Below, one piece after another: positions 2,389 through 37,735 of a stretch of DNA of 64,000 nucleotides. The stretch's first letter is position 1; each line of letters starts with the position of its first letter. A program made the translations under genes and the position numbers. The notes under the pieces are model-generated. The model had not been told where the DNA came from and did no database searches. It worked only from the letters and a program-made list of their open reading frames with translations. The stretch is from Pseudomonadota bacterium (GTDB taxonomy: Bacteria > Desulfobacterota > Desulfobacteria > Desulfobacterales > JBDRRP01), in contig JBDRRP010000027.1 of NCBI GenBank assembly GCA_043825735.1, positions 1-64,000 on the forward strand, given 5' to 3'.

Positions 2389-2545
2389 TGTAGAGGAGGG
2401 GTTCATCCCCTCCCGAAATCCGCAGGGCTTACCCCGATCGCCGATGGTTACCGATCACGGGCGGGGATCCGGCCTTTCGCCAATGCTTCCACCGTCGCTG
2501 CGCTATGGCGGACAAGGCAGCGGACAGGTAAACCCCGCCCCTACA
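2389..2545. repeat. GTAG-type REP doublet with nested micro-insertions (degenerate copy of the MITE-B core)
   Basis: TGTAGAGGAGGGGTTCATCCCCTCCCG ... CGGGCGGGGA[insert]TAAACCCCGCCCCTACA; homologous to 5635-5720, 18905-19075 and 37240-37395. Confidence 0.75.
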
Positions 2546-4318: not shown

Positions 4319-4473
4319 TGCCCATCCATGGGCAACCGCCTGCGCCCTCTCCCTTGATGGGAGAGGGCCGGGATGAGGGTGACAACCAACCGATAACAAA
4401 AGACAATTTTCTACCATCTCGCCCCCTCCCCTGGCACCTCCCACAAGGGGAGGGGGGGATTTATGGATGGGCA
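4319..4473. repeat. CCCTC(T/C)CC..GGGAG(A/G)GGG hairpin doublet bounded by TGCCCATCCAT/ATGGATGGGCA
   Basis: Read directly; related hairpins at 9822-10000 and 18826-18859. Confidence 0.7.
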
Positions 4474-4711
4474 CTAATTCAGAACCATGAAAACCAAAAC
4501 CCGTTCTCGCGCAGAGACGCAGGGACGCAGAGGAAAGCGATTAAAACAACGAGCAAAATGTTTTCTTCGTGTCCTTCATGAGCTCGTGGCACGCCATCCG
4601 AAGTTGCAGGGATGGCCAACTTTGATGAAACCTAAAAAAGGCCTAAAAGCGGGCCCTGACTGAACGCCTCACAGCATCGTTATAAAGCACGTTGACATTA
4701 TGTTATAATAT

Positions 4712-5103: not shown

Positions 5104-5835
5104 TGATGGCACCGTAAAAAGTCGGTTTCTTTCTTTTTTTTTGTCATCCCGGACGAGTGAAACGAGATCCGGGATCCAGTGATCTTAAGCAGTTCTGGAC
5201 CACGCCCGCAGGCAGCGCACAAGATGCCCCGCGGTCACGACGCAAGAGCGTCGTGACCGGATGGTGGATATGACCTTCCCTGAGTCTTTGCGTCTCCGGC
5301 AAATAGGTTTGATAGCCCCGTAAAAAGTCCGAATCTCTCGCAAAGCCGCAGCGATCGCAAAGATAACTAATTGATATTAAAAATGTTTTTCTTTGCGTTC
5401 TTAGCGCCTTCTTGTCGGGCGTAGCTCGCAGAGCGAAGACTGATGCGAGAAAATTGCTTTTTTACAGATTCATCAACGTTGATGAAACCGTAAAAAGGGA
5501 TTTTGAACCACAGAGGACGCAGAGAACCGCAGAGAATATGATTAATAATCAATCAGTTATCTCTGCGCCCGCTGTGGTGGTTTCAGACTTTTACTGGACT
5601 GTCAAGATTATCCCACTCGTTTTTGTCCACTGATCACGGGCGGGGATCAGCCTTCGCCAAGGCTTCCACCGTCGCTGCGCAATGGCGGACAAGACTGCGG
5701 ACAGGTAACGCACCCTACGCGATTGACCGATCTCCGGTGCCCATATGGAATGCCGCGATGGGCGTTTCGGTGCGATGCTGGGTTTTTGGTTCAAACAACG
5801 TCGGCTCATTTACGGGAGGATAGTGCGTAACCAAG
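5104..5835. repeat. Composite repeat field: CGTC-type REP, two tandem TGAT..TCA-ended MITEs (5310-5475, 5480-5604), partial MITE-B
   Basis: Each module recurs elsewhere in the window (25207-25314, 37081-37198, 97-232, 37300-37513). Confidence 0.75.
5411..5443 (+). mobile_element. 33-bp hairpin micro-insertion
   Basis: Filled site GCGCCTT[33 bp]TGCGAGAAAATTGC versus empty site at 37174-37194; no target duplication. Confidence 0.8.
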
Positions 5836-18350: not shown

Positions 18351-19240
18351 AAGTCTGAAATCACCACAGAGGACGCAGAGGGCGCAGAGATAACTTACTA
18401 ATTATTTCGTATATTCTCTGCGGCCCTCTGCGGTCTCTGTGGTTCAAAATCGCTTTTTACGGATTCATCAAGTCTCATATACAAATCCGAAAAGCACCGG
18501 GTCGACCCCATGCGAACGCACGTTGCCTTGAGCGGTGATCACTTCACGGCGTCAAAGCGGCATAAGCGCCGCACCAGTTGAACCTGGAATTTCTCTGCGC
18601 CCCTGCGTCTCTGCGCGAAAAACGCTTTACGCTTTTCTACGAAACGCCAGTTTAGCATCAAAGGCCTGTGCTCCTCGATGACATTGTGAGATCACCAGTC
18701 ACGGAGGGCACGGAGATTTTATTTATAAAATCAACCGCTTTTAATTTTCTCTGAGTCCTCCGTGGTTCAAAATCCCTTTGGATAGCAGCGACACCTCGAT
18801 CGGATCCTCGTGACTTTGCCCGCCTCCCCCTCCCCTGGCCCCTCCCACGAGGGGAGGGGAATTTATGGATATGCATTATTCTCCGGCTAAGGTTCTGGGT
18901 GTTTCGTAGGGGAGGGGTTCATCCCCTCCCGCAATCGGCTAAGATGCCCCCAACCGTTCTTTTACACCGAGCACGGGCGGGGATCAGCCTTCGCCAAGGC
19001 TTCCACCGTCGCTGCGCTTCCGCCGTCGCTACGCTATGGCGGACAAGACGGCGGACACGTAAACCCCGCACCCGACACGATTGAGTGCCCCCCGGTGCCC
19101 ATATGGAATGCAGCGATGGGCGCTCCGATGCAATCGGCGAATTTTTTATGTTCAAACAGCGCCTGACCATTAGCTGGAGAATAGTGCATAACCAGATTGA
19201 ATTATTAGCAAGTTACCTCTGCGCCCTCTGTGGTGATTCC
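18351..19240. repeat. Composite repeat field: MITE-A (18351-18470), arms, CCCCTCCC hairpin, MITE-B (18868-19195)
   Basis: Modules recur across the window. Confidence 0.75.
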
Positions 19241-25117: not shown

Positions 25118-25178
25118 ACGATTGAAGGGTTATATGCGAAAGCGCACCATAAAATCGTTTATGCATAGAGCTAAAATT

Positions 25179-25439
25179 TGACGGTCCTGAAAAAGTCCCA
25201 AAGCGTGTCACCCCGGCGACTTGTCCGCCATAGCGCAGCGACGGCGGAAGGCCGGGGTCCAGAAGTGCTCGAAATCACTGGATCCCGGATCTCGTTTCAC
25301 TCGTCCGGGATGACGAAAAAAATCTGAAATCACCACCGAGGACACAGAGAGCGCAGAGATAACTGATTAGTAATCCGAGCTTTCCTCTTCTTCCCTCTGC
25401 GTACTCTGTGGTTCAAAATCATTTTTTACGGATCCATCA
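25179..25439. mobile_element. MITE-A containing a CGTC-type REP doublet with a 29-bp micro-insertion (25220-25248)
   Basis: TGACGGTCCTGAAAAAG ... TTTTTACGGATCCATCA; CCCCGGCGA[insert]AGGCCGGGG. Confidence 0.7.
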
Positions 25440-36979: not shown

Positions 36980-37735
36980 CACCACGAAGTTCACGAAGGC
37001 CACAAAGAAAAGAAAAAACCGTTTTCGCGCAGAGACGCGGAGGCGCAGAGAACTTCGGAAAAAGATGAACGTCCAACATCGATGGTCCCGTAAAAAGACC
37101 GAATCTCTCGCAAAGCCGCAGAGATCGCAAAGCTAAAAAATTGATACTAAAAATGCTTTTCTTGGCGCACTTGGCGCCTTTGCGAGAAAATTGCTTTTTT
37201 TGGTTATGCACCTTTCTCCAGTTTAGATTTCGGCTGTTTCGTAGGGGAGGGGTTTATCGCCTCCCGCCATCGGCACAGAAGACCCCCACCGTTCGTGTTT
37301 ACCGATCACGGGCGGGGATCAGCCTTCGCCAAGGCTTCCACCGTCGCTGCGCTATGGCGGACAAGACGGCGGACACGTAAACCCCGCACCCTACACGATT
37401 CATTGGTCTCCGGTATCCTTTTTGACTGCCGCGATCGGCGCTTCGTTACAACGACAAATATCATATATGCAATCTACGCCCGACAATTCACTGGAGAATA
37501 GTGCATAACCAGGTTGCTTTTTTACGGATCCATCATCTTTTCTGACATCGGCTGCTGTCACCGAATGTGAAATCGTTTTCGCGCCGCAGGCGTTTCCGCC
37601 CCGGTTTTCTTGGCGTTCTCAGCGCCTTGGCGAGAGAATCGCGATCTTGTTTCTCCATTCTCCATTCATCATTCGACGTTGGGTGTTCGATGTTCAACAT
37701 TCGTTTTTCTCTGCGCCTCAGCGCCTCTGCGCGAG
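36980..37735. repeat. Composite nested repeat field
   Basis: Arms at 37025-37050 and 37709-37734 enclose a GATGG..CCATC MITE, MITE-B, and a block shared with 47239-47424. Confidence 0.75.
37199..37513. mobile_element. MITE-B (~315 bp) with TGGTTATGCAC..CTCCAG inverted ends and an 8-bp target duplication
   Basis: TTGCTTTT at 37191-37198 and 37514-37521; empty site at 5454-5466. Confidence 0.75.

Follow-up and report, generated by a model that had tools for sequence, protein, structure and literature searches.

A ~30-nt tagged hairpin present or absent at exact positions in bacterial repeats matches a hairpin upstream of small GIY-YIG nuclease genes

Introduction

A bacterial genome of 6.8 Mb (160 contigs, 100% complete by markers) contains about 130 members of a family of hairpin units, each 29–36 nt long, that occupy precise sites, filled in some copies and empty in others, within no fewer than five unrelated host repeats, and that also sit inside other units. 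One of them lies in a 64,000-nt stretch of this genome (contig C27, positions 1–64000; hereafter the window), where a single copy of a longer repeat carries an extra piece at 5411–5443. We give about even chances to the explanation that a tagged hairpin module is dispersed in the genome and this insert is one of its copies, the same hairpin standing directly upstream of horizontally spread genes for GIY-YIG nucleases of ~80 residues; the chemistry of its insertion is what we infer. Tagged hairpins and nucleases of the Ssn kind are already known. What is new is that a tagged hairpin with an Ssn-like nuclease behaves as an exact insertion module.

Results

A hairpin insert and its family in the genome

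Alignment of 5311–5463 with 37081–37200 identified the two as copies of one repeat of ~130 nt. The alignment has a single long gap of 33 columns, which corresponds to 5411–5443 and falls between GCGCCTT and TGCGAGA, just as had been read from the window alone in an original prediction. The relative reported there at 25220–25248 was also recovered; it is flanked by CCCCGGCGA and AGGCCGGGG and sits at GA^AG (^ marks the insertion point) in the GAAG tip of a CGTC-tagged repetitive extragenic palindrome (REP). The unit consensus is CY-TGTCCGCC-RTAGC-loop-GCGAM-GGNGGA. Three regular expressions were run over the genome: a loose 5' version (101 matches), a fuzzy version spanning both arms (179 matches, with length peaks at 30 (58), 33 (27), 29 (23), and 36 (16) nt), and a stricter version, which yielded the 130 units used below. 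The exact pattern TGTCCGCCRTAGC-N3-8-GCGAMGGNGGA (28–33 nt) occurs 51 times in the genome and 0 times in a backwards-read control. Thus, the approximate consensus of the original prediction holds genome-wide. Six units lie in the window, and the four beyond the two noted at first are all on the minus strand (Table 1).

The unit has a 5' CY-TG tag and a GC stem of 6–7 bp. Its further parts are a purine-rich 3x3 internal loop, in which RTA or GAA faces GAM, a GC clamp of 2 bp, and an apical loop. Apical loops vary freely in length (3–10 nt or more) and sequence and are often CTTG, TTTA, or C-GNA-G triloops. Most stem pairs are Watson-Crick; pair 3 is G-T in 34 of the 130 units, and a T-A to C-G double change gives a TGCCC...GGGC variant in 12 of them. 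The R and M positions read G..A in 83 units, A..C in 32, A..A in 14, and G..C in 1 (n = 130), and in the same order 78, 34, 11, and 1 among the matches listed from other phyla (n = 124). A Watson-Crick pair is therefore avoided at R/M, given a single G..C in each set. Both GNA triloops and sheared G-A pairs characterize stable DNA hairpins; the triloops together with the R/M avoidance would fit a hairpin read by a protein on single-stranded DNA (ssDNA). The predicted hairpin character stood for one of the two original copies and not for the other: the 25220 copy folds (DNA fold z = -1.48, or -2.62 with its host at 25205–25262), and the 5411 copy is a degenerate variant and a poor hairpin by nearest-neighbor energy, no better than its shuffles (z = -0.01). 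A resemblance to 16S rRNA (GGCGAAGGCGG) and an origin from a tRNA D-arm or acceptor-like sequence were also considered; only one loop subtype looks tRNA-like.

Filled and empty sites in unrelated hosts

The spacer between the two halves of the host was read for five host repeats in this genome. In all five unrelated families it is bimodal, being either 0 nt or a unit or nested units, which bears out the precise ends and the unrelated hosts claimed from the window; copies are not confined to one host repeat. Host 1, a CGTC-tagged hairpin (CGTCACCCCGGCGA^AGGCCGGGGTCCAG), gave 54 matches, of which 34 are empty, 12 hold a single unit, 1 holds a nested pair, and 7 have unrelated spacers. For host 2, a GTAG-headed REP (GTAGGGTGCGGGGTTTA^TCCCCGCCC), the counts are 22 empty, 13 single, and 4 nested; for host 3, 40 empty and at least 17 filled; and for host 6, 16 empty and 4 filled. 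Host 4 is the repeat that carries the 5411 unit, a long hairpin of ~130 nt that resembles a miniature inverted-repeat transposable element (MITE; DNA fold z = -2.39, at least 114 genome copies). A tight regular expression found 50 empty and 5 filled copies of it and a looser one 107 and 7, and the insertion site falls within the long stem and not at a loop position.

Orientation relative to the host is fixed, every unit pointing in the same direction. All seven filled copies of host 4 carry one subtype (TCGCAGA/GACTGA) and all host 2 units have a CTTG loop; hosts 1 and 6 each contain several subtypes. Units are also inserted in units, at G(T/A)^AGC. With L for the left half (CYTGTCCGCCRT) and R for the right half (AGC-loop-GCGAMGGNGGA), nested arrangements read LLRR five times and LLLRRRR once, and unequal forms include LLLR, LLR, LLRRR, a run of six R, and one R-only insert in host 1. 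No longer element with cargo between a left and a right half emerged from a search for one; the spacings look random, and matches to the 12-nt left-half expression are mostly noise.

GA^AG is the unit's commonest target site. Among the 130 units of this genome the left flank ends in GA in 41, the right flank starts with AG in 76, and both hold in 40; among the matches listed from other phyla (n = 123) the counts are 40, 61, and 29, the copies in these counts being mutually non-independent. The predicted lack of a target duplication is strict in host 4, whose junctions have no microhomology. In most other hosts a duplication of 0–2 nt is undecidable because the unit's terminal GA repeats the GA, or the A alone, at the end of the left flank. 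Against genes called as crude open reading frames (ORFs) covering 86% of the genome, 91 of the 130 units are intergenic, 32 lie inside mostly short and doubtful ORFs, and 7 are at an ORF edge. The intergenic units fall between convergent genes in 38 cases and divergent genes in 12, and in tandem gaps in 20 sense and 18 antisense cases.

Polarity and history

Insertion rather than deletion is the economical reading of these alleles because each of the five host families has more empty than filled forms, the 33 nt of 5411–5443 are not bordered by a direct repeat, and the same-genus genome G001 (97% complete) has an empty host 1 element and no units. That element is a paralogous, non-orthologous copy. 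Unit-arm counts in G001 are at background (11 vs 14 in the control), compared with 136 vs 34 in the present genome and 95 vs 5 in G023, which belongs to another family of the same order. The presence/absence check in a sister genome that accompanied the original prediction thus does not lead us to read the short alleles as deletions. In a tree of host 4 copies (139 columns, poorly resolved), the seven filled copies need seven changes, equal to shuffled labels, and the nearest neighbor of each is an empty copy.

An orthologous empty site for 5411 was sought in G001 and G002 and none was readable; genes of these genomes are ~70% identical to those of the present one, and synteny at 5411 breaks over two contigs. 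In the sequencing data, one DNA run carries the locus and no RNA run is listed, and the comparison was made on contigs only. One run contig joins 5410 to 5444, skipping exactly 33 nt; it is no evidence of an allele because more than 100 paralogous empty copies prevent its assignment to the locus. A 248-nt contig of a second study (X2), a single contig of low depth, matches only 5410–5444, with no mismatch and with unlike flanks, which fits a discrete module.

The unit matches a hairpin upstream of small GIY-YIG genes

The original prediction stated that no candidate enzyme lies in the window, which is correct; a candidate is encoded elsewhere in the genome, which has four small GIY-YIG genes (on contigs C6, C73, C124, and C41). 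The gene at C6:153–395 is intact and encodes 81 residues that match PF01541 with E = 1.6e-14 over residues 1–71. The product is a single GIY-YIG domain of the ~80–100-residue class with no extra domain. A look for units near nuclease or recombinase genes, also proposed from the window, located three units 188–361 nt upstream of this gene on the same strand. The nearest solved relatives of the C6 protein by sequence are SLX1 and UPF0213 BH0048. Its Y5, Y17, and E63 match the spacing of Y6, Y17, and E64 in SsnA in a comparison of spacing alone, and the protein resembles the Ssn site-specific ssDNA nucleases. Relatives form 1420 clusters at E<=1e-10; those among the matches listed are mostly 80–100 residues long, are called 'GIY-YIG nuclease family protein' where named at all, and are mostly on short contigs.

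The unit matches a hairpin located 0–60 nt upstream of ~80-residue single-domain GIY-YIG genes. Relatives are encoded at 36 metagenome loci, of which 31 were examined (L202 and L206–L209, with short or weak matches, were left out). Of the 31, 17 have a mechanically defined hairpin (stem of 6 nt, RWAGS, loop, NCGRM, then the 6-nt complement of the stem) on the strand of the gene and no more than 150 nt upstream of it, against a background of 0.027 per 150 nt for both strands elsewhere in the same loci. By eye, a hairpin variant is seen in about 27 of the 31 loci and, in named genomes, next to 9 of 13 close homologues, one of them doubtful. In a set of 22 distinct hairpins adjacent to these genes, the third stem pair is G-C 10 times and T-A 8 times, and the sixth is C-G 16 times, T-A 3 times, and G-C once; these hairpins also have a seventh G-C pair, absent from the dispersed units. 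Judged by sequence, the unit is homologous to the gene-adjacent hairpin, with compensatory changes in the stem.

Particular genomes place the two together. The only exact unit of G018 lies 41 nt upstream of a homologue of 68% identity, a unit in G035 lies 37 nt upstream of the homologue gene, and G033 has units on both sides of it. A homologue at E<=1e-8 is present in 22 of 31 other unit-bearing genomes and in 21 of 250 genomes of a phylum sample, a contrast that is only indicative because the two sets differ in taxonomy.

Several nuclease cassettes directly follow a tRNA 3' end. The degraded C-terminal pieces of a second C6-type nuclease gene are found at C107:312300–313900, at a contig end. 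Four side observations concern such loci. At C73:92980–93430 (L155) a different small GIY-YIG gene is located between two copies of a tRNA 3' end (ggttcgaatccgtgctggggagcca) and looks like a cassette lodged in a tRNA gene. The degraded C107 copy adjoins a likely nucleotidyltransferase/HEPN-type pair, named by eye from the translation. In L162 (G035) the gene-adjacent hairpin has a nested unit-like insert in its apical loop. In L199 and L200 a 19-nt mini unit (CTTGTCCGCC-TCC-GGCGGA) is found on the opposite strand ~30 nt downstream of the nuclease gene.

Distribution across phyla

Of 31 relatives, 3 carry the exact pattern, as do 3 genomes in a phylum sample of 251. Across a set with one genome for each species, at least 122 loci have the unit. 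By their record labels, the matches listed include Saccharibacteria, Falkowbacteria, Uhrbacteria, many Bradyrhizobium, Verrucomicrobiota, and Kiritimatiellia, and also Acidobacteriota, Planctomycetota, Bacteroidota, Bdellovibrionota, Gammaproteobacteria, and others; CY precedes TGTCC in 106 of 124 among them. Hosts vary by phylum: in Bradyrhizobium they are REPs of the GTAG and CGTC kinds, and elsewhere a GTAGGAGCGGC-type REP serves as host. Five unit-bearing genomes of other phyla hold 18, 30, 11, 3, and 1 exact copies. The unit is multicopy in genomes of several phyla and occurs as single loci in many more.

Features of the window

The units and hosts of the window are collected in Table 1. 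Other repeats accompany them. Runs with a 7-nt period (CGCAGAG/CACGAAG-type, e.g. ...cagaggacgcagagaaccgcagagaa...) are present at 5480–5535, at 36980–37060, and on many contigs, and a TGCCC unit variant is embedded in such heptamer arrays elsewhere in the genome (flanks tcatctg/ccctctg). A repeat of ~158 nt at 4319–4476 is common to the window and G001, which has at least 25 copies at 73–80% identity.

Table 1. Units and host repeats in the window.
Feature	Position	Strand	Description	Basis
Unit	5411–5443	+	33 nt; subtype with TCGCAGA loop and GACTGA end; lies in the 3' arm of a MITE-like repeat	Weak hairpin by energy
Host 4, copy A	5311–5463	+	~130-nt MITE-like long hairpin; filled	Alignment; family n = 114 by regular expression, 7 filled
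Host 4, copy B	37081–37200	+	Empty; site between 37180 and 37181 (GGCGCCTT^TGCGAGA), inside the long stem	
Unit	25220–25248	+	29 nt; GCA loop; in a CGTC-tagged REP, at GA^AG of its GAAG tip	
Host 1	25205–25325	+	Head-to-head pair of CGTC-tagged hairpins; empty copies of both fit the published SRM consensus	
Nested pair	2468–2528	-	Inner unit 2488–2516 in an outer unit, in a GTAG-headed REP	Flanks; 61-nt host 2 insert
Nested pair	5647–5705	-	Inner unit 5665–5693 in an outer unit; GTAG-type REP; 200 nt from the 5411 unit	
Composite	18984–19059	-	L-L-R-R-R: inner unit 19019–19047, outer unit, and one extra right half; GTAG REP; 76-nt insert	
Nested pair	37319–37377	-	L-L-R-R: inner unit 37337–37365; GTAG REP; 120 nt from host 4 copy B	

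Discussion

A recognition hairpin that may be moved by its nuclease

In our reading, the unit is the recognition hairpin of this nuclease clade in dispersed form, and the GIY-YIG nuclease may be what moves it. The nuclease would bind the hairpin on ssDNA and nick a few bases 5' of the tag, where the 5' end of the unit falls. Host replication, repair, or ligation would then insert a copy into other hairpins where GA^AG is exposed, and later slippage would give rise to unequal numbers of left and right halves. The 5' end of the unit lies 3–5 nt before GTC, the range being set by the 0–2-nt ambiguity, which would place it within the cutting range of SsnA before its tag; in addition, GA^AG, the preferred target, is similar to the GAAG core of the unit itself. 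Both likenesses are suggestive only. More tentatively, the unit and the ~80-residue GIY-YIG gene might together be the smallest known transposon-like system, comprising an autonomous cassette of ~400 bp and non-autonomous copies of ~30 nt and moving by a novel mechanism. A hydrolytic ssDNA nuclease guided by the hairpin would nick 5' of the tag and host functions would place copies at GA^AG in hairpin tips, resulting in pan-bacterial 'nano-insertions' in REPs, in MITEs, and in each other.

A number of observations weigh against the nuclease-based explanation. None of the 130 units, with 8-nt flanks included, matches the SRM consensus of Chenal et al. (2025). The metagenome hairpins amount to only 9 distinct ones, lineages repeat, and the loci are thus non-independent. 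No homologue was found in 8 of 25 unit-bearing genomes, and G023, with ~90 units, has only a weak homologue ridden with stop codons (the genome is 79% complete); conversely, G003, G012, and G020 have the gene and no exact unit. The hairpin next to the C6 gene itself is the TGCCC...GGGC variant and not the majority TGTCC...GGA. Because subtype tracks host family in hosts 2 and 4, some of the spread may reflect amplification of units together with their hosts. Constraining the seven filled host 4 copies to a single clade cost 70.7 log-likelihood units with p = 0.055 in the approximately unbiased (AU) test, on a tree too poorly resolved to decide. Unequal rejoined halves (LLLR, LLRRR, R-only) are simpler to explain by a cut-and-rejoin enzyme than by a hydrolase. 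GIY-YIG enzymes hydrolyze DNA without rejoining it, and the ligation or copying step is left unexplained. Lastly, the pairing of nuclease and hairpin is a prediction from sequence.

Other explanations

Some of these points would also be expected if the unit has no dedicated mobility. Short-homology recombination, gene conversion, or template switching among hairpin repeats, together with amplification of the hosts, would then account for its spread, and its conservation across phyla would reflect a functional recognition or regulatory site of the nuclease cassette. The correlation of subtype with host family (TCGCAGA/GACTGA in host 4, CTTG in host 2) and the AU result, by which the filled host 4 copies could be one clade, are in keeping with this explanation; the unequal L and R numbers and the tandem runs of R look like slippage, and the left flank ...CGA resembles the 3' end of the unit ...CGGA, a microhomology of 1–2 nt. 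However, the ends are identical in at least five unrelated hosts here and in other hosts in other phyla, hosts 1 and 6 each hold several subtypes, and the host 4 junctions lack microhomology. The seven changes on the host 4 tree, with an empty copy nearest to each filled one, also speak against it. We regard an origin without dedicated mobility as unlikely.

We hold it rather more doubtful that the unit is a REP-like element moved in trans by an HUH Y1 transposase, of the REP-associated tyrosine transposase (RAYT) or IS200/IS605 type, through ssDNA cutting and rejoining via a covalent tyrosine intermediate. The genome has 8 PF01797 hits, including five long forms of 263–390 residues. A hairpin element with an internal GTAG/ATAG/GAAG motif, self-insertion at GT^AG or GA^AG, and no clear target duplication would suit such an enzyme, as would the unequally rejoined halves. 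Yet no unit lies within 1.5 kb of any of the 8 Y1 genes, the GTAG-like motif is within the hairpin and not at its 5' foot, and the element is a single hairpin rather than a pair of end hairpins. The left flank has no fixed tetranucleotide (GA in 41 of 130 here and in 40 of 123 among the matches listed elsewhere), and hosts 2, 4, 5, and 6 differ. Y1 hits are present in all five tested unit-bearing genomes of other phyla, and also in 30 of 31 relatives, of which only 3 have units; Y1 presence therefore does not discriminate. The HUH peel-and-paste mechanism offered in the original prediction thus found no specific support. Its other suggestion, an IS110-like mechanism, likewise gained no specific support: no IS110 DEDD transposase was found (0 PF01548 hits) in this genome, which is complete by markers but assembled in 160 contigs.

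It is improbable that the unit is an RNA-level element, that is, a terminator, a stabilizer, or a loop-E-like protein-binding hairpin selected in transcripts. The intergenic location of 91 of 130 units, the excess of convergent (38) over divergent (12) gaps, and the G-T pairs at stem pair 3 on the written strand (34 of 130) would suit an RNA, and the 3x3 purine loop can be likened to loop-E-like motifs of RNA; GNA triloops, on the other hand, are a feature of DNA hairpins. Tandem gaps are 20 sense and 18 antisense, and the absence of a transcription-strand bias argues against a strand-specific RNA role. An Rfam scan of the window gave no family at the gathering threshold and only chance-level matches around 25150–25320. 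Exact filled and empty sites and nesting would be left unexplained, and SsnA does not bind RNA (Chenal et al. 2025, PMC11893778). Finally, that the short alleles arose by precise deletion from a longer ancestor is extremely improbable: hairpins are deletion-prone and R-only and L-only forms do show loss of unit parts, but in every one of the five host families most copies are empty, the same insert recurs in unrelated hosts, G001 has an empty host 1 and lacks units, and no direct repeat surrounds 5411–5443.

Significance

Units of ~30 nt fall below the usual size range of mobile-DNA searches. They nevertheless break assemblies, create spurious ORFs, and remodel hairpins (REPs, SRMs, MITEs) used by other systems. 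Pairing the family with one small nuclease clade would turn 'enzyme unknown' into a question that can be tested at the bench. The Ssn story would be extended from a nuclease with recognition repeats to a nuclease whose repeats behave as insertions, and a sequence-specific ssDNA nuclease/site pair would be added to the toolbox proposed by Chenal et al.

Comparison with known systems

In the literature searched, 11–13-mers of the unit occur only in unrelated primer or rRNA contexts, and a search on GIY-YIG, hairpin, and mobile terms retrieved no paper beyond Chenal 2025. A precedent in kind is SDR1–8 of the Nostocaceae, reportedly described by Elhai in 2008 as repeats of 21–27 nt, some of them hairpins, that lie inside MITEs and one another, with the enzyme unknown and no gene proposed. 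By that description the unit shares the very short length and the nesting in MITEs and in itself, and differs in sequence and host phylum.

The REP/REPIN-RAYT system (Bertels & Rainey 2011, PMC3116915) and IS200/IS605 are alike in the logic of ssDNA hairpins, the lack of an obvious target duplication, and short repeats mobilized in trans. Their defining features (a GTAG foot, a doublet structure, a flanked RAYT gene, and a fixed target tetranucleotide) were each looked for and are lacking in the unit.

Di Nocera, De Gregorio & Rocco (2013, BMC Genomics, PMC3733652) distinguished GTAG-tagged from CGTC-tagged REPs, whose tag may read TGTC; the CGTC REPs are without a known transposase and some families are 'inserted within small palindromes' in the sections of the paper used. 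The unit is likewise a short tagged palindrome, mostly intergenic, favoring convergent and unidirectional gene pairs, and spread over several phyla. The unpaired CGTC, TGTC, or CCTC at one end that marks CGTC REPs is found in the unit consensus as TGTC. By the same sections, CGTC REPs have a stem of 8–9 bp with A-T at positions 1–2, a loop of 4–5, and a CCA tail; the unit has none of these, and instead has a 6–7-bp GC stem, a 3x3 internal loop, and an end reading GGA followed by AG. Those sections do not report a cross-phylum unit with fixed ends, self-nesting, or a link to GIY-YIG genes.

The closest system is Ssn (Chenal et al. 2025, Nat Commun, PMC11893778), and the following draws on parts of that paper. 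SsnA, a single-domain GIY-YIG protein of 94 residues, binds its tagged hairpin NTS as ssDNA only and cleaves such DNA a few nt to the 5' side of the tag; with the oligonucleotide NTS75 the cut fell 5 nt ahead of GTC. The unit's stem starts with C-G and not A-T, has an internal purine loop, and lacks a CCA-type tail, and filled and empty alleles, insertion in other hairpins, and nesting are absent from the parts compared; a search of 12 of its 14 supplementary files found none of the unit strings. True SRM-type CGTC hairpins are present in this genome in the form of host 1, the SRM consensus having 133 genome hits, host 1-type hairpins included, vs 50 in the reversed genome. Shared with Ssn are a small single-domain GIY-YIG gene beside an oriented xGTC-tagged hairpin repeat with many more copies dispersed elsewhere, the spacing of the catalytic Tyr/Tyr/Glu, and a patchy distribution across phyla. 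Ssn genes are typically flanked by their own hairpins, and its authors note the IS-like layout NTS-ssnA-NTS.

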